Shown here: piece by piece, positions 2,900 to 60,158 of the stretch | Position numbering within the stretch: position 1 is the stretch's first letter | Layout of the letters: each line of letters begins with the position of its first letter | From: a bacterium | Lineage (GTDB): Bacteria; Patescibacteriota; Minisyncoccia; Phycocordibacterales; Phycocordibacteraceae | Direction of reading: 5' to 3' | Length of the DNA stretch: 64,000 bases | Assembly: GCA_037200965.1 (NCBI GenBank) | Contig: JBBCGK010000001.1 | Span: forward strand, 192,001 to 256,000 | The notes under the pieces: model-generated | What the model was told of the DNA's origin: nothing | The model's input: the letters and a program-made list of their open reading frames with translations, nothing else | Databases searched by the model: none | Made by a program: the position numbers and the translations under genes

Positions 2900-3253
2900 T
2901 CACGAAGAACTGCGTGTCTCTGCGGTAACCGTCTTGTATATTTTCCTCGCCCCGGGAAGCGGACTCTCTTTCGTCCGTCTCCCTATGTGCTCGCCTCCGC
3001 ATATCTCGACTACCCTCCAGTTGTGAGCCCATATCTCGATTCGTATGAGACCCCGCTCGGCGAGTGCGTTCAGAGCGTTAGCATAGAAGGCCGCACCGGG
3101 CGGCGCACGCTTTTCGAACGCTTCCCGCAGCGTCGGCGTCCCGTCCCGGGCTTTCCCGGAAGTCGTAGGGCAACGGGCGCCGTCAAGCGCGGCGTCGACC
3201 AGAATCTCGAAAATGACCTTCAGACCCTTTCCATAGGGAGAATTGTCGTCCAT
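2900..3253 (-). CDS. Small hypothetical protein (internal start of ORF 2900..3718)
   Basis: MDDNSPYGKGLKVIFEIL... with GGAG 9 nt upstream of the ATG. Divergent from rseP. Weak call. Confidence 0.3.
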   Translation of the reverse strand: MDDNSPYGKGLKVIFEILVDAALDGARCPTTSGKARDGTPTLREAFEKRAPPGAAFYANALNALAERGLIRIEIWAHNWRVVEICGGEHIGRRTKESPLPGARKIYKTVTAETRSSS

Positions 3254-3323: not shown

Positions 3324-4427
3324 ATGGAAGTTATCCTGCTCATCGCCGTCCTGGTCGTGCTCGTCGTCGTGCACGAATTCGGGCATTTCGTCGTCGCGAA
3401 ACTCTCGGGCATGCGCGTCGACGAGTTCGGCATCGGATATCCGCCGCGCGTTGCGGGATTCAAATATAAAGAAACGGAATATACCCTGAACGCGGTGCCG
3501 TTCGGGGGATTCGTGAAGATATACGGGGAGGACCTCGAAACGCCGCGAAGCGGCGCAGATTCTTCCGGAAGTTTCGCATCGAAGCCACGTCCGACGCAGG
3601 CCGCGGTCCTCATCGCGGGAATCGCGATGAATCTTCTTTTGGCGTTCGTTCTTCTCACGCTCGTGCTCTTCGTCGGAACTCCCCGCGCGCTCGCGCCGGA
3701 AGAGATCGCAGGAGCCAAGGACGCGCGGCTTGCCGTCGCGCAAGCGCTTCCTGGCTCTCCGGCAAGCCTCGCGGGCCTTCGGGCAGGCGACTATATACTC
3801 TCCGCAACCTACGGACCGAACGTGTTTACGGGCGCATCGCCCGAAGAATTCACGGCATTCATGTCAAAGGACGGTGAAGCGATTCCGGTATCCATAGCGA
3901 TAGAGCGCGCAGGGAAGCCGCTTACCCTCACCGCAACGCCGGCCAAAGGCATCGTCGCGGCAGACCCCGAACGCGTAGCGCTCGGGGTCGCGGTCGCGAC
4001 CGTCGGTACCGTTCCGCTCTCTCCCTGGCGCGCGGTCCTCGAAGGCGCGCACATGACCTGGGAAATCACCAGGGAAACCGCCGCCGGGCTCACGCACCTC
4101 TTCGCCGGGCTCTTTACCCTCTCGGCCGACCTCTCGCAGGTTTCGGGGCCCGTAGGGATTGCGGGCGCGGTCGGCACGGCCTCGGCCCAGGGCTTCGGGA
4201 ACCTCGTCACGCTCGCGGCCATCATTTCCATAAACCTCGCCCTTATAAACCTCCTGCCCGTTCCCGCGCTTGACGGCGGGCGACTCCTGTTCGTCATCAT
4301 CGAGTCGGTGATCAGAAGGCCTATCAAAAAAGAAGTGGCGACCGCGGTGAATACGGTCGGCTTCGCGCTCCTGGTGCTTCTCATGCTCGTCGTCACGGCG
4401 CACGACGTGTATAAGCTGGTCGTATAA
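3324..4427 (+). CDS. rseP: RIP zinc metalloprotease (site-2 protease) RseP
   Basis: HEFGHF HExxH motif in the first TM segment and PDZ-like middle region. 367 aa. Confidence 0.85.
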   Translation: MEVILLIAVLVVLVVVHEFGHFVVAKLSGMRVDEFGIGYPPRVAGFKYKETEYTLNAVPFGGFVKIYGEDLETPRSGADSSGSFASKPRPTQAAVLIAGIAMNLLLAFVLLTLVLFVGTPRALAPEEIAGAKDARLAVAQALPGSPASLAGLRAGDYILSATYGPNVFTGASPEEFTAFMSKDGEAIPVSIAIERAGKPLTLTATPAKGIVAADPERVALGVAVATVGTVPLSPWRAVLEGAHMTWEITRETAAGLTHLFAGLFTLSADLSQVSGPVGIAGAVGTASAQGFGNLVTLAAIISINLALINLLPVPALDGGRLLFVIIESVIRRPIKKEVATAVNTVGFALLVLLMLVVTAHDVYKLVV

Positions 4428-6218: not shown

Positions 6219-7271
6219 ATGTCCCGCTTCTCCCGAAACTCCCTGTTCTCAAGCGACATCGGCATCGATCTCGGCACCGCCAATACGCTCGTGTACGTGC
6301 GCGGAAAAGGCGTGGTGCTCAACGAGCCGTCGGTGGTCGCAGTAAACGACAAGACCGGACAGGTGGTCGCGGTCGGGCGCGAAGCGAAAGTGATGCTCGG
6401 CAAGACGCCGCCGCATATCCGCGCCGTGCGGCCGCTTTCGCACGGGGTTATATCGGACTTCGAAGTGACGGAGGAACTTCTCGCGTACCTCATCGCCAAG
6501 GCACAGAAAGACCGCACGCGCCTCTTCGGGCCGCGCGTCGTGATCGGCGTCCCGACCGGCGTCACGAACGTCGAATCAAGGGCGGTGCGCGATGCCGCAC
6601 TCACCTCGGGTGCTCGCGAAGTCTATATCCTTGAGGAGCCAGTCGCGGGGGCGATCGGCGCGAAACTTCCCATACACGAGGCGGTCGGCACGATGGTGCT
6701 CGACATCGGCGGCGGCACGACCGATATCGCCGTGCTTTCTTTGGGCGGCACGGTCGCCTCAAAGAGCTCGCACGTCGCGGGCGACCGCTTCAACGACAAC
6801 ATCATCGACTTCCTCCGGAGCGAATTTCATACCGCGATCGGCGAACGCACCGCCGAAGACACGAAGATCGCAATCGGCGCGGTGACGCCGCTTAAGGAGC
6901 CGCTGACAAAAGCGGTCCGCGGGAGGGATCTTGCGACCGGACTTCCGCGGGAGGTCGAACTTAACGATACCCATATCCGCGAGGCGCTTGCGCCGTCTTT
7001 GGATGCCCTTATGGAAGCCATGAAGGAAGTGATCGAGAAGACACCGCCGGAACTTCTCTCGGACGTTCTTGAACGCGGCGTAACGGTTTTCGGGGGCGGG
7101 GCGCTGCTTCGCGGGCTTCCCGAGCTCCTTGAGAAGATGCTCGGCGTGCCGGTGCACGTGGCTCCCGATCCTCTGACCGCCGTCGTGCGGGGCACCGGCA
7201 TCGTGACGGAGGACCCGGAACCGTGGAAAGACGTATTTCTCAATGAAGACGCGATTCTTAAGGAGGCGTAA
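6219..7271 (+). CDS. mreB: Rod shape-determining protein MreB
   Basis: Internal ATG at 6219 gives MSRFSRNSLFSSDIGIDLGTANTLVYV..., the actin-like MreB N-terminus. proS stop is at 6214-6216. Confidence 0.9.
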   Translation: MSRFSRNSLFSSDIGIDLGTANTLVYVRGKGVVLNEPSVVAVNDKTGQVVAVGREAKVMLGKTPPHIRAVRPLSHGVISDFEVTEELLAYLIAKAQKDRTRLFGPRVVIGVPTGVTNVESRAVRDAALTSGAREVYILEEPVAGAIGAKLPIHEAVGTMVLDIGGGTTDIAVLSLGGTVASKSSHVAGDRFNDNIIDFLRSEFHTAIGERTAEDTKIAIGAVTPLKEPLTKAVRGRDLATGLPREVELNDTHIREALAPSLDALMEAMKEVIEKTPPELLSDVLERGVTVFGGGALLRGLPELLEKMLGVPVHVAPDPLTAVVRGTGIVTEDPEPWKDVFLNEDAILKEA

Positions 7272-8037
7272 CGCGCTGTTGGCGCCGGGGGCTCTCTCGA
7301 TAGGGGCGGGCATCCTGGCCGTGGCGCTGCTGTTCGTACTGGTGCGCCTTGTGGCGCCGGGGCTTTCGATCGCGATCGCGACGCCCTTTTGGAACGCCGG
7401 CAGTTCCTTAAGCGCGGGAACGTATACGGCGATGACCAGCTTCGGGAACGCCGCGAATCTTGCCAAGGAACGCGACGCGCTTAAGGCGGAGAACGTGCAG
7501 TTGCTCGCAGAACGAGGAAAGCTTTCCGCGCAGGTAGCGGACCTTACCAAACTTCTCGGCGCGCGGCCTGCCGCGAAATCCGGCATACCCGCTTCCGTGC
7601 TCGCGCGGCCGCCGTTCTCCTCCTATGACATCCTCGTCGTCGACGAGGGAAGCGAGGCGGGCGTCGTCGCAGGAGATCCGGTCACCGCCCTCGCAGGGGT
7701 GCCGATAGGCACGGTCGCAAGCGCCGCCGGAAGCTCCGCGCGCATCGTGCTGTATAGCGCGCCGGGAACGGAGACGCCGGGCTGGGCCGGGAATGCGCGG
7801 ATTCCGGTGACGCTCTTCGGAGAGGGCGGGGGAGCCTTTTCGCTTTCGATACCCAAGGACGCGAAGCTTAGCGTCGGCGACACGATATATCTTCCCGGCG
7901 AAGGCGCGATACCGGTCGCGACCATCCTGCGGCTTGACGCAGACCCGTCCTCGGCGTTCATGACCGCGCGCCTGAAGCCGGTCCTCAACCTTTTCTCGCT
8001 TACGTGGGTGGAGATTTCGAAAGGAGGCGCGCCATGA
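7243..8037 (+). CDS. mreC: Rod shape-determining protein MreC
   Basis: N-terminal TM, coiled-coil region ERDALKAENVQLLAERGKL, C-terminal beta domain. Overlaps the mreB stop. Confidence 0.8.
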   Translation: MKTRFLRRRNALLAPGALSIGAGILAVALLFVLVRLVAPGLSIAIATPFWNAGSSLSAGTYTAMTSFGNAANLAKERDALKAENVQLLAERGKLSAQVADLTKLLGARPAAKSGIPASVLARPPFSSYDILVVDEGSEAGVVAGDPVTALAGVPIGTVASAAGSSARIVLYSAPGTETPGWAGNARIPVTLFGEGGGAFSLSIPKDAKLSVGDTIYLPGEGAIPVATILRLDADPSSAFMTARLKPVLNLFSLTWVEISKGGAP

Positions 8038-8288: not shown

Positions 8289-9943
8289 GGCGCCGCACGA
8301 TACGCGACCACGAACTCGCTCCCGACGAGATATTCCTCGATTCTTCGAACCTGCCCGACTTCGACCGCTCACGGCTCGAAGGCCGTTTGGAAAAGCCCGT
8401 ATCGGAGCGCTCGTATACCGCCCTTCTCGGGGCGCTCGGCGTCCTCCTCATCGTGCTCCTGGGCCAGGCGTGGAAGCTTCAGGTGTGGCAGGGAGAAGCG
8501 TTCGCCGCCCAAAGCGAACGCAACAGCCTGCGGCAGACGGTGCTTTTCGCCGACCGCGGTGCCATCACCGACCGGAACGGCGTGGTGCTTGCGGAAAATG
8601 TGCCGAGCGCGAGTTCCACGGAGCGCATTTATAAGACGCCGGGATTCGCGAACGTGCTGGGCTATGTCTCGTACCCGAAGAAGGATTCAAGCGGCAAGTA
8701 TTACGATACCGAGACCACGGGCCTTGCGGGCGTCGAGGCTGCCTTTAATGCGGAGCTTGCGGGTGAGAACGGCTCGCACCTTATAGAAGAGGACGCGCTC
8801 GGAAAGCAGCTTTCCGAAGGAAGCGTTATCCCGCCAAAAAACGGCGCGACGCTCAAGCTTTCGATCGACGCGGGCGCGCAGACCGCGTTGTATGACGCCA
8901 TACAGGGGCTTGCCGACCGCATCCCGTTTCAGGGAGGCTCCGGGATACTCATGGATGTCGAGACGGGCGAACTCCTGGCGCTCGTTTCGTATCCGCAATA
9001 CGACCCGAACGTGCTTTCCTCCGGCGGCCCCGGAAGCGTCATCGCCGGATATTCGAGCGACTCAAGACAGGTGTACCTCAACCGTCCGGTACAAGGGCTC
9101 TATACGCCGGGCTCGGTCGTGAAGCCGGTCGAGGCGGCCGGAGCGCTCACCGACAAGGTAATCACGCCGGGATACACCATAAACGCGCAAGGGTCGATCT
9201 CGGTGCCAAATCCCTATGACCCCGCGCACCCGACGATCTTCAAGGACTGGAAGGTGATCGGGATAGAAGACCTGCGCAGGGCGATCGCCTGGTCTTCCGA
9301 CGTGTATTTCTATATGGTCGGCGGGGGGTACGGCGATATCAAAGGGCTCGGGATCGAGCGCCTCAAGCACTGGTATTCCGCCTTCGGCCTCACGAGCCCG
9401 ACGGGGATCGAGCTGCCGGGCGAGAAGGGCGGCTTCGTGCCCGACCCGGCATGGAAACTTAAAACATACGATGATCCGTGGCGCATCGGCGATACCTATC
9501 ACACCGCCATCGGCCAGTATGCGATGCAGGTGACGCCGCTTGAAATGGCACGGGCGATCGCGGCGATCGCAAACGGCGGGAAGCTCGTGCGCCCGACGAT
9601 ACTCGCGGGCCAGGCACCGTCGGGGGAATCGCTTGCGGTCAATCCCGCGGACCTGCAGGTGGTGCGGGAGGGAATGCGGCAGGGGGTGACCGAAGGAACG
9701 TCGGTGGGACTTAACGATCTCGGGTTCGTAAAGCCTGCCGGGAAAACGGGAACCGCGCAGCTTGGCGTCCATAACGAGTGGTACAACTCGTGGGCTGTCG
9801 GGTTCTTCCCGTACGACCGCCCCAAATACGTGTACGTCGTCATCATGGAGCGGGGGCCTTCGACCAACGCGATCGGCGGCGTGTATGCCATGCACCAGTT
9901 CCTCACGGCGCTCCACCGGGCCGCGCCGGAGTATTTCGAGTAG
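8285..9943 (+). CDS. mrdA: Penicillin-binding protein 2 (elongasome transpeptidase)
   Basis: 552 aa; SxxK (GSVVKP), SxN and KTGTAQ motifs. Sits after mreBCD. Confidence 0.85.
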   Translation: MRRRTIRDHELAPDEIFLDSSNLPDFDRSRLEGRLEKPVSERSYTALLGALGVLLIVLLGQAWKLQVWQGEAFAAQSERNSLRQTVLFADRGAITDRNGVVLAENVPSASSTERIYKTPGFANVLGYVSYPKKDSSGKYYDTETTGLAGVEAAFNAELAGENGSHLIEEDALGKQLSEGSVIPPKNGATLKLSIDAGAQTALYDAIQGLADRIPFQGGSGILMDVETGELLALVSYPQYDPNVLSSGGPGSVIAGYSSDSRQVYLNRPVQGLYTPGSVVKPVEAAGALTDKVITPGYTINAQGSISVPNPYDPAHPTIFKDWKVIGIEDLRRAIAWSSDVYFYMVGGGYGDIKGLGIERLKHWYSAFGLTSPTGIELPGEKGGFVPDPAWKLKTYDDPWRIGDTYHTAIGQYAMQVTPLEMARAIAAIANGGKLVRPTILAGQAPSGESLAVNPADLQVVREGMRQGVTEGTSVGLNDLGFVKPAGKTGTAQLGVHNEWYNSWAVGFFPYDRPKYVYVVIMERGPSTNAIGGVYAMHQFLTALHRAAPEYFE

Positions 9944-45692: not shown

Positions 45693-45953
45693 CTAGTCGC
45701 CCCACAAAATTGCGCCTTCGGAATTTATGGTTGTGACGGATACTTTTCCGACGGCATCGGTTAGCCGCACTTCCCCGGGCAGGGGAACTTTCCCGGTCAG
45801 GGGAGCGAAGACGATCTCAGAAAAATATGAAGAAGAGAGAAGTCCCCTGCCCTCCGCGAAACATATGAGCCTGACATTGCTAGTTGGTGTTATATTGGCC
45901 TGGATTATGGGAGTCTTTTCGCCTGAGGAGTATTTCGGCGCTATCAGGAACAA
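45693..45953 (-). pseudogene. Pilin C-terminal fragment lacking the prepilin N-terminus
   Basis: C-terminus IVFAPLTGKVPLPGEVRLTDAVGKVSVTTINSEGAILWGD is about 80% identical to the C-terminus of pilin 47921..48379. The N-terminal half is unrelated and has no prepilin leader. Confidence 0.45.
45701..45820 (+). repeat. Direct repeat copy A (about 120 bp, roughly 85-90% identical to 47927..48046)
   Basis: Aligned by eye: ...ggcatcggtta(g/a)ccgcacttccccgggcagg(g)gaactttcccggtcaggggag(c/a)gaagacga... Confidence 0.7.
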
Positions 45954-47186: not shown

Positions 47187-47933
47187 TCATATAAGTACTG
47201 TATCTAGTTCTTCCACAGAGTAGCGTCCCCTGGTAAGGCGGTCAAGTTCCACGGAACTAACGTTCAAGTGAACATCCTCAGTGCCGTCTTCATAGTCTTT
47301 TATGAGCACGTTGAGCTCGACCGCCTTGCCAAACTGCTCTTTGACGGCCACGACATTTTCACGCGCACCCTTGAAAGAACGTATGAAGACATCCCTGGAC
47401 ACATGCCGTGACTCTGTCACCTCGCGAACTTTAGTAAACTCCCAGGCCTTCACCGGATCCTGAAATACGAACCATATTTCAACTAAGCGGCTCCGGGACA
47501 GCGAACGGCTGATATTCTCCGGGGCATTTCCGTAAGCGAACGTACCATCAAGTATGCAGTTGAGGTTCTTTTCGAGGGCATAGTCGTATAAGATGTTCAC
47601 CCCTTTATTCGCGGCGCTTTGGAAGAGGTGGGCATTTGCACCTGTATATCCGTCACAGAGCATGCGTATGTCGTCCGCATCTATGCGTATCGGCATATCC
47701 TTAAACCGTCTCATAAATCCTTTTGACACCTCAGTTTTGCCCGCCCCCGGCGAACCGGCCATAAACAGCGAAACCGGCTTATTCACGGGGCGACACGCGT
47801 CGGGGTGCGCGAACTTCTCTATGATTTCTTTTCTGTGGCTCTTAACAAAAGCAATCGCATCCCGTTCAATACGAGTTTCTTCTTCGGTCATCCCGGATAT
47901 CCTAACACTCTGTAGGCCTGTCACTTTCCCCAT
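47187..47933 (-). CDS. Zeta-toxin-like P-loop kinase
   Basis: Walker A FMAGSPGAGKTEVSK in a roughly 250-aa protein with zeta-toxin/AAA_33-like layout. Low GC. Confidence 0.55.
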   Translation of the reverse strand: MGKVTGLQSVRISGMTEEETRIERDAIAFVKSHRKEIIEKFAHPDACRPVNKPVSLFMAGSPGAGKTEVSKGFMRRFKDMPIRIDADDIRMLCDGYTGANAHLFQSAANKGVNILYDYALEKNLNCILDGTFAYGNAPENISRSLSRSRLVEIWFVFQDPVKAWEFTKVREVTESRHVSRDVFIRSFKGARENVVAVKEQFGKAVELNVLIKDYEDGTEDVHLNVSSVELDRLTRGRYSVEELDTVLI

Positions 47934-48379
47934 AAAACCGCACCTTCTGAATTGATGGCTGTAATGGATATCTTCCCGGCGGCATCGGTTAACCGCACTT
48001 CCCCGGGCAGGGAAACTTTCCCGGTCAGGGGAGAGAAGACGACTTCGGCAAGTCCGGAGCGCAGGGCATCCGACTTCCCTTCCAGGATAATGTCTTCGCC
48101 CTCATGCCGTGAGAAGTAGCTGCCGCCCTCGAAAATGACGAAGCCGGAATCTCCGACGTAGACGCCATGCGCGCTGGGGCCGGTACAAACTTTCGCGGCA
48201 CACACGCCGTTAAGCGCTTGCGAGCGGGCATGCAGAAGCGCGATCCGAATCGTATCCTCGTCGTTTCTCTGAAGTGTCCTTTGATAGCTCTCGAGTCCGA
48301 CGATAAGCCCGATCGCGGAGATCGTGGCAACAAGCGCTATAACGATTAACAGTTCGACGAGCGTGAAGCCGCGAGGCAT
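47921..48379 (-). CDS. Type IV pilin / pseudopilin
   Basis: Prepilin N-terminus MPRGFTLVELLIVIALVATISAI (class III signal: G, F, E5). Confidence 0.8.
   Translation of the reverse strand: MPRGFTLVELLIVIALVATISAIGLIVGLESYQRTLQRNDEDTIRIALLHARSQALNGVCAAKVCTGPSAHGVYVGDSGFVIFEGGSYFSRHEGEDIILEGKSDALRSGLAEVVFSPLTGKVSLPGEVRLTDAAGKISITAINSEGAVLWGK
47927..48046 (+). repeat. Direct repeat copy B (pilin gene 3' end)
   Basis: See copy A. Overlaps the last ~40 codons of pilin 47921..48379. Confidence 0.7.
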
Positions 48380-54870: not shown

Positions 54871-55764
54871 CTATCCTCCCGGAGCGCATACGCCCGAGAG
54901 CGTCTTCGCGCCCGGAACGCCGCAGCGGCTTGCGGAACATGCCCATGCGCTCATTGTCGGCGTATAGAGGCCGCAGGCGGCCTGCGTGTTGATTTTCGGA
55001 TCCTGAGCCGCACGAACGCACTGAGTATAGAGATTCTGGTCTTTAACGGAAGAGTCGCACCACCCTACCTTGCCCTGATTCCGTATGTACTGCCCCGAGC
55101 ACGGGTGCGTGAATGCGGCCGGGCAATTAAGACTGCCGAGCTTCGTCGTCGTGAGATTGATCTGCCAAAGTCCCCAAGAATAGCTCGGTCCCTTTCCCTT
55201 ATCGAGCTTGTCGGATCCGCTCGGGATCGCGGTTTGTCCGCCCGCGCTTTCGAGATTGCATACTTTCGACGCCACTTCCCCGTTTGCCGCGAAGCATGTT
55301 CCTTGGAGGCCTTGCACGCTGCAGGGGTTGTTCGCGTTTGAAGGCACCTTGCACGAACTGTTTCCCGAACTCGGCGTCGCGGAAACATTGGTCGCCGTTA
55401 CTGGTGCCCGCGGCGTGCTGAGCTCAAGACAGGCAGCCTCGCCCCCGGAAATGATCGCGTTCCACGGCCCGAACGTGCCGTTATAGAGCGCATTCATGAC
55501 CGTATTGACGATAAGCCATGCACCAAGGACGACCAGAAGACCGATTACCGTCTGCAGCACCACGGTTCGCGCCTGCTTCACGTTATCCGGACTCGCGGCG
55601 TTGGTTACGAACAGGAATCCCGCGTACACCAGCAGAAGCACGGCAAAAAAGACCGCCAGATACAGGCCGAATTTGAGAAGGTTCTGAACTACGGCGAAAA
55701 AACCGCCCCAGCCGCAGGCGCAATGCTGGCAGATCTCGGGGACGATGCTCCCGGTGAAGTCCAT
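54871..55764 (-). CDS. Membrane protein with VirB2/TrbC-like N-terminal TMs and a Cys-rich SLT-like domain
   Basis: CNLESAGGQTAI...GLWQINL resembles the ES...GLMQ motif of lytic transglycosylases. Twelve Cys in the C-terminal half. Confidence 0.45.
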   Translation of the reverse strand: MDFTGSIVPEICQHCACGWGGFFAVVQNLLKFGLYLAVFFAVLLLVYAGFLFVTNAASPDNVKQARTVVLQTVIGLLVVLGAWLIVNTVMNALYNGTFGPWNAIISGGEAACLELSTPRAPVTATNVSATPSSGNSSCKVPSNANNPCSVQGLQGTCFAANGEVASKVCNLESAGGQTAIPSGSDKLDKGKGPSYSWGLWQINLTTTKLGSLNCPAAFTHPCSGQYIRNQGKVGWCDSSVKDQNLYTQCVRAAQDPKINTQAACGLYTPTMSAWACSASRCGVPGAKTLSGVCAPGG

Positions 55765-55858
55765 ATGAGTATGTATATACTACCGTATCTTTTCGCTGCA
55801 CGAACGCTCTCCCCAGTAAAATAAGAGCATCAGTCCCGTGCCTGCTACACTGGGTTCA

Positions 55859-56521
55859 ATGAAATTGAAAGAGAAGGAGGCCGCAATACGCCTGCGCTAC
55901 AAAGGGCATACGCTAAACGAGATAACCGCGATGCTGGGAGTCGCAAAAAGTTCCGTGTCGCTCTGGGTGAGGACGTTGGATATTTCTCCGCAGGCGCGGG
56001 AACGGATAGCGTCGCTGCAAACTACAGGACAGAAGACGGCCCGAAACAACAGATTGGCGCTGACTTCTCGCATACTTTCGGAAGCAAAAGAAGATGCGGA
56101 TGTCCTGACGAAGCGTATCAAACTGGATAAAGATTGGGCACTTGTAGTGTGCAGCCTTCTATATTGGTGCGAGGGAGAAAAGAGCCATAATGACGGCAGG
56201 TTCAGATTTTCAAATTCGGATGTCGATATAATACGGGCGTTCGTTGTGCTGTTGCGAACGGCACTTGTTCTTGATGAAAGAAAGTTCAGAATCTGCATGC
56301 ACCTTCACGAATATCATAATGAGTCAAAACTGCGATTGTTCTGGTCGGAGATAACCGGAATCCCGGAAGAGCAATTTCTTAAAACATTTTGGAAACCGCA
56401 TACCGGAAAGACCATAAAACAAGGATACCCGGGCTGCATACACATTACGTACCACGATGTACGGGTAGCGCGAAAAATATCCGCTACTGCCCGAGCGTTT
56501 CTTAAAAGCATGGTACAATGA
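55859..56521 (+). CDS. HTH-domain protein, possible LAGLIDADG-type homing endonuclease
   Basis: N-terminal HTH ITAMLGVAKSSVSLWVR. LLYWCEGEKS resembles a degenerate LAGLIDADG block. Lower GC. Immediately upstream of tRNA-Trp. Confidence 0.4.
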   Translation: MKLKEKEAAIRLRYKGHTLNEITAMLGVAKSSVSLWVRTLDISPQARERIASLQTTGQKTARNNRLALTSRILSEAKEDADVLTKRIKLDKDWALVVCSLLYWCEGEKSHNDGRFRFSNSDVDIIRAFVVLLRTALVLDERKFRICMHLHEYHNESKLRLFWSEITGIPEEQFLKTFWKPHTGKTIKQGYPGCIHITYHDVRVARKISATARAFLKSMVQ

Positions 56522-56528
56522 TGGATAC

Positions 56529-56600
56529 GGGTCCATAGTTTCAATGGTAAAACGCTTCTCTCCAAAAGAAGTATTGCTGGTTCGAGTCCAGCTGGGCCCG
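56529..56600 (+). tRNA. tRNA-Trp (anticodon CCA)
   Basis: Manual fold: acceptor GGGUCCA/UGGGCCC (one G-U), D-arm GUUU-CAAUGGUA-AAAC, anticodon stem CUUCU/AGAAG with loop CUCCAAA, T-arm GCUGG-UUCGAGU-CCAGC, discriminator G. Confidence 0.8.
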
Positions 56601-56622
56601 CTAAAAGTGATACACTGAGCGC

Positions 56623-57024
56623 ATGGAAACTATTGCCGTACGTCTTACCGATGGGCAAGATTTACTGGTGGAAATCAAGGACGTAACCTTTAAACAGGAT
56701 ATCGAAGCGGGCGTTATTCTTTCCGGAGTCGGAAGTTTGAAGAAAGCGAAAATCCGTGTTCCGGTGATAAACGGTGAAGTAAAGTACATCGAACCACAGA
56801 ACCTAGAGATCGATGCGCTGCATGGAACAGTGTCAAAAAACGGTTGTCATGTGCATATTACTGTTTCTGATATTTCAGGAAACGCCTATGGAGGGCATAT
56901 AAAGGAAGGGTGTATCGTCCGGACTACATGCGAACTGGTGATAGGAATAGTGAAGAACACCCGCTTTAAGCGCACACTAGATCCCGCTACCGGATTTGAA
57001 GAGCTCGTAATCGAAACCGCTTAA
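56623..57024 (+). CDS. PPC/DUF296 domain protein
   Basis: GQDLLVEIKDVTFKQDIEAGVILSGVGSL...HVHITVSD...GHIKEGCIVRTTCELVIG matches the DUF296 pattern. Confidence 0.7.
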   Translation: METIAVRLTDGQDLLVEIKDVTFKQDIEAGVILSGVGSLKKAKIRVPVINGEVKYIEPQNLEIDALHGTVSKNGCHVHITVSDISGNAYGGHIKEGCIVRTTCELVIGIVKNTRFKRTLDPATGFEELVIETA

Positions 57025-58090
57025 ACCCCTCTTGTCCGAAACCAGAAATCATTCTTTATCTCTTCCGTAAGGCGATACGCATCGGCGTGGGAGAGGACGC
57101 CAAGATATGAATTAAAAGATGAAAGGACAGTTGTTTCACTTGTATTGCCTGTCCTAAATTCCGCTGCACGCTTCCGAAGCTTCCGGATGATTCTCTGTTT
57201 TGTCTTCCGGCGTAGGGCGATATGCCCGGGCAATACGACGTATCCGAGGAAGTCGATCCCTTGTCGATACGTGCGGATAAAGACTTTATCAGGATGAAGG
57301 GAGAGGTGAAGTCGTTCTTCAAGAAACGTGCCAATTTCGGGAATCAGACTCTCAAGATACGAACGGTCTCCTGACACGATTACGAAATCATCCGTATATC
57401 GCATATAATGTTTGACCCTAAGCCCATGCTTTATAAATTGGTCGAGCTCGTTCATATACACGTTGGCGAAAAGCTGGCTCGTAAGATTGCCGATCGGCAC
57501 TCCGTTCCTTGGCGTATCGTCCCCCCCCCCCCCCCCCCATTCAATCCGGCCGTATAGCTTTCGATAACTTCTTCGAGAAGCCAGAGAACTTCCGGATCGG
57601 CGATTTTCTTTCTGAGAATGCCGAGCAGTACCGCGTGATTGATGGTGTCGAAAAACTTCCGTACGTCGCACTTCAAGGCGAAACAAGGCCGCGTCCCGTT
57701 CGCACTTACCGCACGCAGCGAATGCTTCAAATATTCGACGCCTTTGTGCGTGCCCTTTCCTATCCGGCAGGAAAAAGAGGACGCTATAAAGGTCGGCTCG
57801 AAAACCGGATTGAGTATCTTAAAAATCGCATGGTGGAGTACGCGGTCGCGTACCGTCGCCTTATGTATGCGCCGTATCTTTGGGTCGCGGATCCAAAAAC
57901 CCCGGTACGGCCCGTGGCGGTAATACTTGCCGCGCAGCTCCCGAGCAAGTTTGAAAAGTTCATACTCGACGTTTTGCTCGAAAGCCGCCACGTCCGGTTT
58001 GCCGCGCTTATCGCGCTTAAAGATATCCCACGCCTCGAACAGGTTTTCTGGCGAGGTTATCGATCCGTATAAGTCCTTATATACCTTCAT
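57021..58090 (-). CDS. Diversity-generating retroelement reverse transcriptase, interrupted by a frameshift at a C18 homopolymer
   Basis: N-terminal ORF 57452..58090 carries RT motifs 1-3 (KIRRIHKATVRDRVLHHAI; FALKCDVRKFFDTINH). C-terminal ORF 57021..57686 carries GVPIGNLTSQLFANVYM (the DGR-specific IGxxxSQ motif) and YMRYTDDFVIV (YxDD). The two frames meet at the poly-C run 57521-57538. Confidence 0.75.
57521..57538. repeat. C18 homopolymeric tract (G18 on the coding strand) inside the RT gene
   Basis: Seen directly in the sequence. A change of one nucleotide in tract length would fuse the two RT ORFs. Confidence 0.9.
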
Positions 58091-58444
58091 ATGAATAGTG
58101 ACCTAGACATACCGATTTTCAAGAAGAGTTACGACCTGTATAAGATGTTCTACGGCTACCGCGCCGACGTGTCGAAGCAGGATCGATACACGATCTGGCA
58201 GCGTTCGGAGAATTCCATCCTCGACATCGTCGAGGCGATTCTGCTTGCAAGCCAGTCAAGTAAAGCGGAGAAACTTCCGATACTTGAGGGGGCGAGCGTG
58301 AAGCTCAACCTGGTACGGATTCTGGTTCGACTCACGAAGGACGTGAAAGCCATCGATAACAAGAAATACCTTGCGCTTGAAGCGAACGTTGACGAGATCG
58401 GCAGGATGCTTGGCGGATGGATCCGTTCGGCCAAGGAACGGTAG
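58091..58444 (+). CDS. avd: DGR accessory variability determinant (Avd; four-helix-bundle family)
   Basis: 117 aa. The C-terminus VDEIGRMLGGWIRSAKER parallels the bAvd C-terminus (VGRILGSWIARVNRK). The KKSYDLYKMFYGY...LDIVEAILLAS four-helix pattern is present. Start codon abuts the RT start codon on the opposite strand. Confidence 0.7.
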   Translation: MNSDLDIPIFKKSYDLYKMFYGYRADVSKQDRYTIWQRSENSILDIVEAILLASQSSKAEKLPILEGASVKLNLVRILVRLTKDVKAIDNKKYLALEANVDEIGRMLGGWIRSAKER

Positions 58445-59276
58445 GAGAAATCCGCCGAGGAGGCGGATCTTCTTCCGGATAGAGAAACGACTGCCAGGCA
58501 GCGGCCAGACCGAGGTCGGAGACGCGGTAGCTGTCCCAGTAGGGGCTGACGTTGACGGACTCGGAGTCGACGCCGACATAGACGTGATTGCCGTCCGCGT
58601 CGAGACTGGACGTGCGAACGTAGAGACTCTTGAAGAGCCAAACGCCACGGACTTCGAAGAAGACCGTGATGAACCAGCTCGTCTCGGCGGCGTTCGGGAC
58701 GCGTTCGGTGTTCGAGGGCAGCAGGGTCTGTTCGCCCCAGGTTTTGCTCGTCGAACCCGTGACTTCCGTCTTCTTGTGGGCGAACCACCCGGAGCCGGTG
58801 AGATCGCTCTGCGCGAACCTCGCCTGCTCGTACCAGCCGCCGGTCTTGCTGGAGAAGAGCTTGGGCTTCAGGGCACGGATGGCCAGGAGCGCGAGCATCT
58901 GCGGCGAGTGCGGCATCAGGGCATAGCCAGCGGCCTTGAGCGCGTTCAGCGTCTCGACCGGCGGAATGCTGTCCGCGAGCGCTTCGATCTGCTGCGCGCT
59001 GTAGGCGATGTCCGGACGCTTCGCCATGATCTCTTCGGCGGTGATGAAGTCGCCGCCAAGGATGGAACGCGCGAGCGTGTAATCCGGCTGCTTTGCCGAA
59101 AGGCGCGTCACCAGGGCGACGAACCCTTCGTCGAATTCACCGCGGCGCCTGAAGAGGCGCTGGTGAGCTTCGTGATCGAGGGGAACATCGCTGCGAATGC
59201 GCGCGGCGGCGGATGCGATCATCTCGTCGAGGTGGTCGTGTTGGCCTGACGTGGCCGGGGATGCCGACATGGTCAT
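58332..59276 (-). CDS. Candidate DGR target protein (C-terminal region resembles a CLec/FGE-type variable region)
   Basis: 314-aa ORF. Residues about 215-260 (GVWLFKSLYVRTSSLDADGNHVYVGVDSESVNVSPYWDSYRVSD) are rich in Tyr/Asn/Ser/Asp/His, as in DGR variable repeats. The 3' end overlaps avd convergently by 112 nt, so the true stop is uncertain. Confidence 0.45.
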   Translation of the reverse strand: MTMSASPATSGQHDHLDEMIASAAARIRSDVPLDHEAHQRLFRRRGEFDEGFVALVTRLSAKQPDYTLARSILGGDFITAEEIMAKRPDIAYSAQQIEALADSIPPVETLNALKAAGYALMPHSPQMLALLAIRALKPKLFSSKTGGWYEQARFAQSDLTGSGWFAHKKTEVTGSTSKTWGEQTLLPSNTERVPNAAETSWFITVFFEVRGVWLFKSLYVRTSSLDADGNHVYVGVDSESVNVSPYWDSYRVSDLGLAAAWQSFLYPEEDPPPRRISPTVPWPNGSIRQASCRSRQRSLQAQGISCYRWLSRPS

Positions 59277-59320: not shown

Positions 59321-59402
59321 TGTAAGGCGAGCTATTTACGGCCTAGTTGTAAAATGTTTCGACAGATACTGTCGAAAATAAGCCGTAAATAGCTCGCCTC
59401 AC
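59321..59402. promoter_or_regulatory. Nested long inverted repeat upstream of the candidate DGR target gene
   Basis: Outer arms AAGGCGAGCTATTTACGGC (59324-59342) and GCCGTAAATAGCTCGCCTC (59382-59400). Inner hairpin TTTCGACAG-ata-CTGTCGAAA (59358-59378). Confidence 0.4.
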
Positions 59403-59888: not shown

Positions 59889-59974
59889 TGTCGTAGGGTC
59901 CTTTCAGCCCGGGCTAATGCGGACGAAACCGCAAGAACGACCATGGAAAGTATACCATTTTGAAATCAGGTCAG

Positions 59975-60003
59975 AAAAAGCGCCCCTTCGGGGGCGCTTT
60001 TTC
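59975..60003. terminator. Bidirectional rho-independent terminator
   Basis: AAAAAGCGCCCC-ttcg-GGGGCGCTTTTT. Serves rpmG on the reverse strand. Confidence 0.7.
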
Positions 60004-60158
60004 TATTTCTTCACCTCCTTAAAGGCGACGTGCTTTCTGATCGTCGGGTCGAACTTCTTGAGCTCAATCTTGCGCTCGACCTTCTTGCGGTTCTTGCGGG
60101 TATAGTACACGAAGTCGGACTTCGAGGACTTGATCTTTATGAGGTGATCCTGAGACAT
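60003..60158 (-). CDS. rpmG: Ribosomal protein L33
   Basis: Reverse-strand translation MSQDHLIKIKSSKSDFVYYTRKNRKKVERKIELKKFDPTIRKHVAFKEVKK fits the L33 pattern. 51 aa, below the ORF-track cutoff. Confidence 0.7.
   Translation of the reverse strand: MSQDHLIKIKSSKSDFVYYTRKNRKKVERKIELKKFDPTIRKHVAFKEVKK

Follow-up and report, generated by a model that had tools for sequence, protein, structure and literature searches.

Diversity-generating retroelements (DGRs) of a type that is common among CPR/Patescibacteria, with their tiny genomes, have been described with a B3 layout (Wu et al. 2018, PMC5758913) and as DGR clade 2 (Roux et al. 2021, PMC8144416). The legend of Figure 5 of the former study gives the B3 architecture as TR-(avd)-RT. 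In an intact relative of this kind, the transcript of the template repeat (TR) is copied by a complex of the reverse transcriptase (RT) and Avd, with misincorporation opposite adenines, and the cDNA replaces the variable repeat (VR), with which a target gene for a C-type-lectin-fold protein ends on its 3' side. Since neither CPR/Patescibacteria DGRs nor their TR-(avd)-RT layout are new, the element reported here adds little in itself. As sequenced, the locus is a DGR derivative, with real DGR kin but incomplete, and we put at about 80% the probability that it is a chromosomal Patescibacteria B3 DGR whose VR and TR merged by deletion into one hybrid copy, with loss of diversification.

Like the CPR B3 DGRs, the locus displays an RT that is 42–68% identical to those of members with adenine-specific TR/VR pairs, an avd gene that abuts the RT start from the opposite strand, a target gene upstream in the RT orientation, a repeat at the canonical TR position and a hairpin after this repeat. 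Unlike them, it has a single VR/TR hybrid copy without target stop codon or VR-TR spacer, and in this assembly a run of 18 G (G18) puts its RT out of frame. When compared to the DGR of the Bordetella phage BPP-1 (mtd-VR, avd, TR, brt), the locus has an inverted, zero-spaced avd and lies in the chromosome of a ~1-Mb Patescibacteria genome; its RT has a low-complexity loop insertion of ~15 residues before motif 3, and neither a TR/VR pair nor a VR-side IMH or hairpin is present. The features listed in a preliminary description of the locus were all present where it had placed them, while several of them are read differently below.

The RT gene occupies positions 57021..58090 (minus strand) of the window, by which we mean the 64-kb stretch analysed out of a 960-kb contig. 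It appears as two overlapping minus-strand ORFs (57452..58090 and 57021..57686), each with an RVT_1 match. The preliminary description had taken these as RT halves; both do carry RT motifs, but they are two frames of one gene, the N-terminal ORF 57452..58090 and a C-terminal frame at 57021..~57537, frameshifted at the G18 homopolymer (57521..57538, minus strand, C18 on the plus strand; sequence and regex count). The RT carries GVPIGNLTSQLFANVYM and YMRYTDDFVIV, and both GVPIGNLTSQ (IGxxxSQ, motif 4) and YTDD (YxDD) are those of the DGR clade. In agreement with the DGR-type RT proposed earlier, its closest solved structure is the Bordetella phage bRT (8ub7, E 8e-43, residues 3-312), whereas group II RTs match less well among the PDB relatives (4e-22), and the loci of RT relatives at 42–68% identity hold adenine-specific TR/VR pairs. 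The RT also aligns end to end with Patescibacteria RTs of ~349-358 aa, to which it is 58-68% identical and with which it shares IGNLTSQ and YxDD.

The G18 run is located in the variable, low-complexity RT loop that precedes motif 3, which is occupied by RERERERES or AGGGG in RT homologs. Replacing the 18 G by 19 or 16 would restore a 356-aa RT. A Logan contig (L084), otherwise identical over 4.26 kb, has G19 and a called 356-aa RT, and the assemblies of another dataset end in contig breaks on either side of the G run; JGI metagenome contigs scanned for the flank of the run gave no match. The RT is out of frame with G18 in the window and intact with G19 in L084, at a homopolymer whose length is unreliable in sequencing.

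The avd accessory gene (58091..58444, plus strand) encodes a 117 aa protein that matches PF22296 bAvd (5e-16) and NF033474 DivGenRetAVD (2.7e-20), as expected from its earlier assignment as an Avd homologue, and is 77% identical to the Avd of L001, the locus with the closest RT relative. Its ATG directly abuts the RT ATG, divergently and with zero spacer. This geometry had been called atypical, yet it is the norm in the clade, where it is found in ~75 of 81 related genome loci, and it belongs to the published B3 architecture (PMC5758913). As in that architecture, avd lies on the opposite strand between the TR position and the RT, with the repeat ~400 nt upstream of the RT start.

The target ORF (58332..59276, minus strand) encodes a 314 aa protein and overlaps avd by 113 nt; public gene calls start it two codons later, giving 312 aa. 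Its native part (58491..59270, minus strand) comprises an N-terminal helical region and a C-terminal C-type-lectin-like domain, with the VR-like repeat at the end. The tentative earlier assignment of this gene as the target is borne out by homology to the VR-bearing targets of L001, L003, L006 and L008, and by an AF2 model whose matches among CLec/FGE proteins include TvpA, Mtd and TaqVP, themselves DGR targets; the protein is thus predicted, at the level of a structural model, to be a CLec-fold member of a Patescibacteria DGR target family. The profile search that had been proposed for its C terminus was less fruitful, as the target matched no family in Pfam or NCBIfam. In this it differs from Treponema denticola TvpA and Thermus TaqVP, the CLec/FGE-type DGR variable proteins, as it does by a helical N-terminal region that is specific to a 77-member Patescibacteria family and by a non-native tail of 52 residues.

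This read-through tail (58332..58490, minus strand; 52 codons, QSFLYPEEDPPPRR...) runs through a TR flank and then for 113 nt antisense to avd. It is found in no other of the 77 family members, the remaining ones terminating 1-3 residues past ...LGLxxARK, and it is predicted to be disordered (pLDDT <50). The DNA of the tail is homologous to the TR-downstream/avd region of L001. Both the tail and the overlap with avd, which had been noted as an unusual arrangement, are best explained not as a design feature but as a consequence of the loss of the native stop codon at the VR-TR merger, within the ~470 bp that are missing relative to the related loci.

In order to identify a TR/VR pair, we combined a seed-based repeat search with two adenine/thymine-aware diagonal scans, covering direct as well as inverted repeats and both assignments of the TR and VR roles. 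None was detected in the 64-kb window, where the best scores equal the shuffled null, and the RT neighbourhood gave null-level matches only. The adenine-aware scan likewise found no TR matching the hybrid repeat, and no second copy of it, within the 64 kb. As a positive control, the same scan was applied to relatives, 54 of which yielded a TR/VR pair; of the 973 mismatches in these pairs, 956 fall at TR adenines. The distance from the TR end to the RT start in these 54 relatives has a median of 408 nt (range 356-449 nt), and in relatives with a TR/VR pair the VR start precedes the TR by a median of 474 nt. The preliminary description, which had discerned no such pair, was right on this point. 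It had also presented the locus as a DGR and had named the lack of an adenine-specific pair as evidence against this; RT, avd and target stand, but the pair is absent from the window, so that on those formal terms the claim of a complete element does not.

A direct repeat of 124 nt and 84% identity (45700-45823 / 47928-48051) was considered as a TR/VR pair and rejected, its mismatches not being adenine-specific; it corresponds to the C-termini of paralogous prepilin-type proteins. Rfam at gathering threshold reported three tRNAs and nothing else in the window, and at permissive thresholds only chance hairpin matches between 58300 and 60200.

What the locus does have is a single hybrid repeat of ~110 nt (58494..58603, minus strand; alignments A3 and A4). 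The target gene runs on through its 5' flank and VR-like body, while its 3' end joins a TR-type flank (58445..58493, minus strand; CAGTCGTTTCTCTATC...) that contains the clade-conserved post-TR hairpin. In L001, L003, L006 and L008, the sequence with which this flank aligns is the one downstream of the TR and not the one downstream of the VR, and CAGTCGTTTCTCTATC is identical to the L001 TR flank at 16 of 16 bases. The hairpin CCGCC-GAGGA-GGCGG (58452-58466) reported earlier is real and forms the inner part of a 9-bp stem at 58448-58470 (AGATCCGCC-TCCTC-GGCGGATTT); its type, however, is not the VR-downstream one that had been proposed, since it is homologous in position to the post-TR hairpin. 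Of 55 relatives, 35 have such a hairpin 2-25 nt past the TR but only 10 have one past the VR, and it occurs in 5 of 275 shuffles. VR-side recipient elements, namely an IMH and a downstream GC-rich inverted repeat, were not found, the hairpin present being of the post-TR type. When folded as RNA, the entire repeat together with its flank shows no unusual stability (z -1.5) and only the local post-TR hairpin stands out. Finally, 404 nt separate the end of the hybrid repeat from the RT start, as compared to the median of 408 nt for the TR ends of the 54 relatives.

The position and flank of the repeat bear on the possibility that the DGR is complete and active, with 58494-58603 an ordinary VR abutting avd and the TR remote, outside the 64-kb window. 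The search covered 64 of 960 kb, avd and the RT (with G19) are intact, and some DGRs are known to have remote components (PMC5758913). Nevertheless, we regard this arrangement as very improbable: in every one of the 54 relatives the TR end lies between 356 and 449 nt upstream of the RT start, the canonical TR position is here filled by the hybrid repeat followed by a TR-downstream-type flank, the target lacks the conserved stop position of its family, and the repeat is 100% identical across assemblies.

The body of the repeat appears VR-like, as judged against the TRs of relatives at 34-41% target identity. The four related TRs all have an A at 20 columns, and the hybrid repeat carries another base at 8 of these, as compared to 8 of 45 conserved non-A columns changed, an excess that is only modest. 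Five of seven Asn codons are altered at A positions (to Y/S/P/Y/Y), and the repeat retains 16 adenines, a number between those of the related TRs (24-30) and VRs (8-14).

These observations are best explained by an ancestral order of target-VR, TR, avd (opposite strand) and RT, in which the two direct repeats have very probably fused into the hybrid. On its 5' side are the target and the already diversified VR-like body, and on its 3' side the TR-downstream flank, with the post-TR hairpin and then avd antisense. The ~470 bp lost would comprise the stop codon of the target, the spacer between VR and TR, and the adenine-rich template. The likeliest cause would be an inter-repeat deletion whose crossover fell in the ~21 nt of invariant sequence at the 3' end, probably within 58494-58514 (CTCGGTCTGGCCGCTGCCTGG); homologous recombination, replication slippage or cDNA-mediated mis-repair would each be compatible with such a deletion. 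Our literature search gave no direct precedent for natural VR-TR recombination.

The same junction is found in three other public assemblies. It is present in a 960-kb contig (JBBCBH010010897.1), in a second NCBI assembly and in two Logan contigs, which pass through it unbranched and unbroken. This bears on the possibility of an assembly artefact, in which a normal VR-spacer-TR arrangement with repeats ~85-90% identical was collapsed and ~470 bp skipped. VR/TR pairs are a classic case of repeats prone to collapse, assembly graphs are fragmented by VR heterogeneity in populations, and the region has a second assembly-sensitive feature, the G18/G19 run with its adjoining contig breaks. On the other hand, four assemblies from different pipelines, which may stem from only two sequencing datasets, share the junction, including the 960-kb contig and the two unbranched Logan contigs. 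Moreover, the shared stretch, from the last VR-type codon to the first base of the TR flank, measures only ~21 nt. Logan assemblies use k=31, and with a shared stretch of this length the junction k-mers should come from real reads. A collapse therefore seems improbable.

If the merger took place as proposed, diversification could not continue because a separate invariant template is absent, and the target would be frozen in one VR state with an unstructured read-through tail of 52 residues. Both the deletion mechanism and the loss of function are what we infer from the arrangement. The event was probably recent, avd being intact and the RT intact apart from the G run; the lack of other decay in RT and avd would however be unexpected in a system long useless, and to that extent counts against the merger. 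Intact alleles may co-exist in the source population.

The consensus of the hybrid repeat is 100% identical in the four assemblies, which argues against activity, although it is not a measure of it. The same identity bears on the idea of a self-templating, single-repeat DGR, in which the hybrid, transcribed with the target mRNA, would serve as both template and recipient and mutate itself. The TR-downstream elements (post-TR hairpin and flank) kept directly 3' of the repeat, the 16 adenines left in it and the RT intact in one assembly would fit such a system. We nonetheless find it hardly credible: there are zero sequence differences in the repeat among assemblies, such a system would erode its own adenines, and the VR-side recipient flank is gone, while in BPP-1 the VR-specific IMH is required for recipient function (PMC3240598).

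The merger, if correct, provides a clean natural example of DGR death, in which template and target stop are removed together and RT and Avd are left essentially intact, a route to DGR loss that we did not find documented in the literature. It also accounts for the odd annotation of a target ORF overlapping avd, as the G-run frameshift does for the split RT. Merged loci of this kind would be invisible to TR/VR-based DGR finders and would be reported as "orphan" RTs. Among the related loci, RT and avd occur without a TR/VR pair in L002, L004, L015, L022, L023 and L041, for example.

The coexistence of G18 and G19 in otherwise identical contigs, together with simple-sequence tracts in the RT loop of relatives, allows another reading of the G run, namely that a long tract in this loop is a slipped-strand phase-variation switch turning the RT on or off, and not a defect or a sequencing error. 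We consider this doubtful, and our literature search found no report or direct precedent for SSR control of DGR RTs. If true, long SSRs would have been repeatedly recruited in Patescibacteria DGR RTs as a gate on hypermutation, and their recurrence in one RT loop across the clade is a testable lead towards phase-variable control of hypermutation. RERE... or GGGG occurs in this loop in 9 of the 120 closest RT proteins. At the same loop position, (GA)10-13 tracts are found in L001, L033, L043 and L054 and (AG)5 in L029, and in L021 an RT frameshift is located at a G10 run.

Two overlapping ORFs on the minus strand (57452..58090 and 57021..57686) both match RVT_1 and correspond to the reverse transcriptase (RT) halves of the preliminary description; they are a single gene, which DNA reading and a count of the run show to be broken by 18 G on the minus strand (C18 at 57521–57538), and either nineteen or sixteen G restore a continuous RT of 356 aa. 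The joined RT aligns end to end with bRT, the RT of the Bordetella phage diversity-generating retroelement (DGR; PDB 8ub7, E 8e-43), while group II intron and retron RTs match it far less well (4e-22 or weaker), and IGNLTSQ and YTDD are invariant across the RT alignment, which confirms the proposed DGR-type RT. It has more than 7,000 homologs, the closest being Patescibacteria proteins of ~349–358 aa with 58–68% identity. The G run is located in a variable low-complexity loop immediately ahead of RT motif 3, which reads RERERERES or AGGGG in homologs and is a gap in bRT; among the 120 RT proteins closest to it, 9 have RERE... or GGGG in this loop. The run itself is genuine, though its precise length is in doubt, as the contigs of a second dataset end at both flanks of the homopolymer. 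Repeats of this kind occur in other RT genes: in L001, the locus of the closest named RT relative, the loop that corresponds to the G18 position carries a (GA)13 tract (8552–8577), and within RT nt ~552–596 the same loop has (AG)10 in each of L033, L043 and L054 and (AG)5 in L029. Elsewhere in the gene, a G10 run coincides with an RT frameshift in L021 (RT nt 911), and another lies at the RT start in L060 (RT nt 7). These tracts raise the possibility of phase-variable control of DGR RTs, of which no report was found in the literature searched.

The RT start abuts a 117 aa gene on the plus strand (58091..58444) that encodes, as had been proposed, a bona fide accessory variability determinant (Avd; PF22296 5e-16, NF033474 2.7e-20). 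The two ATG codons are directly adjacent, without a spacer (58088–58093), an arrangement previously regarded as atypical. This is not so, as ~75 of 81 related loci (80 genome loci encoding RT relatives, plus L001) encode an Avd homolog on the opposite strand whose start is separated from that of the RT by no more than a few to some tens of bases. The layout corresponds to architecture B3, "TR-(avd)-RT" (TR, template repeat), which makes up 90% of the CPR set of Wu et al. 2018 (PMC5758913), and Patescibacteria DGRs were placed in a separate, cellular clade 2 by Roux et al. 2021 (PMC8144416). Throughout the clade the start codons stand back to back, 0 to a few nt apart (e.g. 8000/8001 in L001), so that the promoter and ribosome-binding site of each gene must sit within the coding sequence of the other; a consensus scan returned no sigma-70-like site at the start junction. 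Both genes lie within a low-GC island (55650–58450, 44–54% GC versus ~60% in the window), while the neighbouring target gene has 63–65% GC. The island also holds an HTH protein (55838..56521), tRNA-Trp (56529–56601) and a PCC-domain protein (56623..57024) with a 4-nt overlap at the RT stop.

The 314-aa ORF tentatively named as the target was correctly assigned, being homologous to the 265 aa target of L001, a Pacebacteria locus whose RT and Avd are 67% and 77% identical to those of the window, and belonging to a family of 77 proteins (260–268 aa, all Patescibacteria "hypothetical proteins"). Every other member stops 1–3 residues past ...LGLxxARK, and the window protein alone extends, by 52 residues. 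The reported overlap between avd and the target is therefore present, and is explained by read-through following loss of the native stop codon. On the minus strand, 50–130 nt upstream of the target start codon, lies a very stable nested hairpin (59323–59402; MFE −50.9 kcal/mol, z −10.4), whose outer stem of 24 bp includes a perfect inverted repeat of 18 bp and encloses a 9-bp hairpin. It matched no Rfam family above threshold and could act as a terminator for the 104-aa gene that lies upstream or as a 5' element regulating the target.

No template/variable repeat (TR/VR) pair had been found by eye, which was borne out: a seed-based search for repeats across the entire 64-kb window found none near the RT, and adenine-aware diagonal scans, which penalise a mismatch lightly only where the putative template has A (or T), gave top scores of 17–22, equal to shuffled controls. 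The same scan recovered a 95–140-nt pair in 54 loci of relatives; of the 973 mismatches, 956 fall on adenines of the template. In these loci the TR is upstream of the RT, with a median of 408 nt (range 356–449) between its end and the RT start, and another 474 nt upstream (median) begins the VR, at the 3' end of a gene oriented like the RT; in L001 TR and VR occupy 7491–7607 and 7009–7125, respectively. L008 has repeats at 846–963, 1875–1991, 2979–3095 and 3480–3597, one of them the TR and three the VRs of paralogous targets of the same family, each with 16–17 adenine-only mismatches to the TR. Among related loci with 1 kb or more of sequence upstream of the RT, ~9 (including L002, L004, L015, L022, L023 and L041) have an avd/RT pair but no detectable TR/VR, and these may be additional DGRs that have decayed or collapsed; in L022 and L041 long plus-strand frames end at the avd 3' end. 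The only sizeable repeat of the window (45700–45823/47928–48051, 124 nt, direct, 84%) was rejected as a TR/VR pair, its mismatches being non-adenine and its copies paralogous prepilin C-termini. One copy ends a prepilin-type protein of 152 aa (N-terminus GFTLVELL) and the other an 86-aa ORF, possibly a remnant; the pair (45693–45953 and 47921–48379) is adjoined by type IV pilus/T2SS assembly genes.

What the window does contain was revealed by aligning its minus strand with L001 and with L003, L006 and L008, further loci of RT relatives, over their VR and TR regions. A single hybrid repeat (~58494–58603) is present, with 404 nt between its end and the RT start, just the spacing expected of a TR end. 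On its 5' side the window tracks the target-gene (VR) side of the relatives, while 3' of the invariant end ...CTCGGTCT.GC....C.GG it tracks their TR side, with CAGTCGTTTCTCTATC matching the L001 TR flank without a mismatch; next come a hairpin and avd in antisense. Twenty columns hold A in each of the four related TRs; at 8 of these the hybrid repeat has a base other than A, compared with 11–14 in true VRs, and it contains 16 adenines versus 24–30 in TRs and 8–14 in VRs. Where the L001 TR has seven Asn codons, the hybrid repeat reads Y, S, P, Y and Y at five; in four of these five the differences from the L001 codon are confined to A positions, while in the first (TAT versus AAC) the third base also differs, and the L006 TR has T there. 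Judged against the TRs of relatives, these sequences are suggestive of a body that is diversified rather than template-like. The hairpin, described earlier as CCGCC-GAGGA-GGCGG, does exist, with a 9-bp stem (58448–58470), although it is not of the VR-downstream type then assumed. Hairpins of 7–12 bp and unrelated sequence start 2–25 nt past the TR in 35 of 55 related loci, against 10/55 past the VR and 5/275 in shuffles, which identifies it as the post-TR hairpin of the clade. This fits a TR origin of the 3' flank, and the hairpin may belong to the DGR RNA or terminate avd.

The locus is interpreted as a B3-type Patescibacteria DGR with VR and TR merged. An assembler collapse was weighed against a physical deletion by looking at other assemblies. 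The window locus is found in GCA_037975565.1 (contig JBBCBH010010897.1, 960 kb), and an identical Avd is encoded on three further public contigs: GCA_015655515.1 and Logan SRR10968228 are both 100% identical to the window from 57582 onward, and Logan SRR28211700 is identical over 4,258 bp save one additional homopolymer base (C19), its RT being called as an intact 356-aa gene. The hybrid junction and a 312-aa target call are common to all of them, the Logan contigs pass unbranched through the hybrid repeat, and the stretch shared between VR type and TR-flank type is only ~21 nt, which on sequence grounds favours physical deletion, even if the four assemblies may represent just two datasets. 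The merger could have arisen by homologous recombination, slippage or cDNA-mediated mis-repair, three causes that the present data do not distinguish, and would have removed template, spacer and target stop codon. With no invariant template, continued diversification would be impossible, and the identity of the repeat in all assemblies is consistent with such a halt. As Avd is intact, and RT too except for the G run, the merger would seem to be recent, and their state also leaves a slight likelihood that a TR lies elsewhere or that some function persists.

CRISPR-Cas is uncommon in Patescibacteria. The window has a CRISPR-like array (~30085–30620) of seven 40-nt repeats (GTAACGGTACTCTGGTCCGTCGAGATGAGGGGGATGCTAC) and a shortened eighth, with spacers mostly of 31–32 nt (the last ~44 nt), the first and third being identical. 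Upstream, on the plus strand, lie a Cas1 ORF (27963..28730; TIGR00287 8.8e-27, profile positions 90–325 only), preceded by a 573-aa ORF (26216..27937) whose sequence matches nothing in Pfam, NCBIfam or the PDB and which may be either an effector not yet characterised or a spurious frame of high GC, and, between cas1 and the array, an rve transposase (28737..29780). The region is flanked by two minus-strand IS30-like transposase genes (HTH_38 + rve; 25105–26148 and 31081–32052), which account for the 80-nt 76% repeat D6. Finally, a perfect 14-bp palindromic terminator-like hairpin (59973–60004, AGAAAAAGCGCCCC-TTCG-GGGGCGCTTTTTCT) has A/T-rich stem ends, which would yield a U tract whichever strand is transcribed, and shares two bases with the 3' end of rpmG (60003..60158, minus strand).
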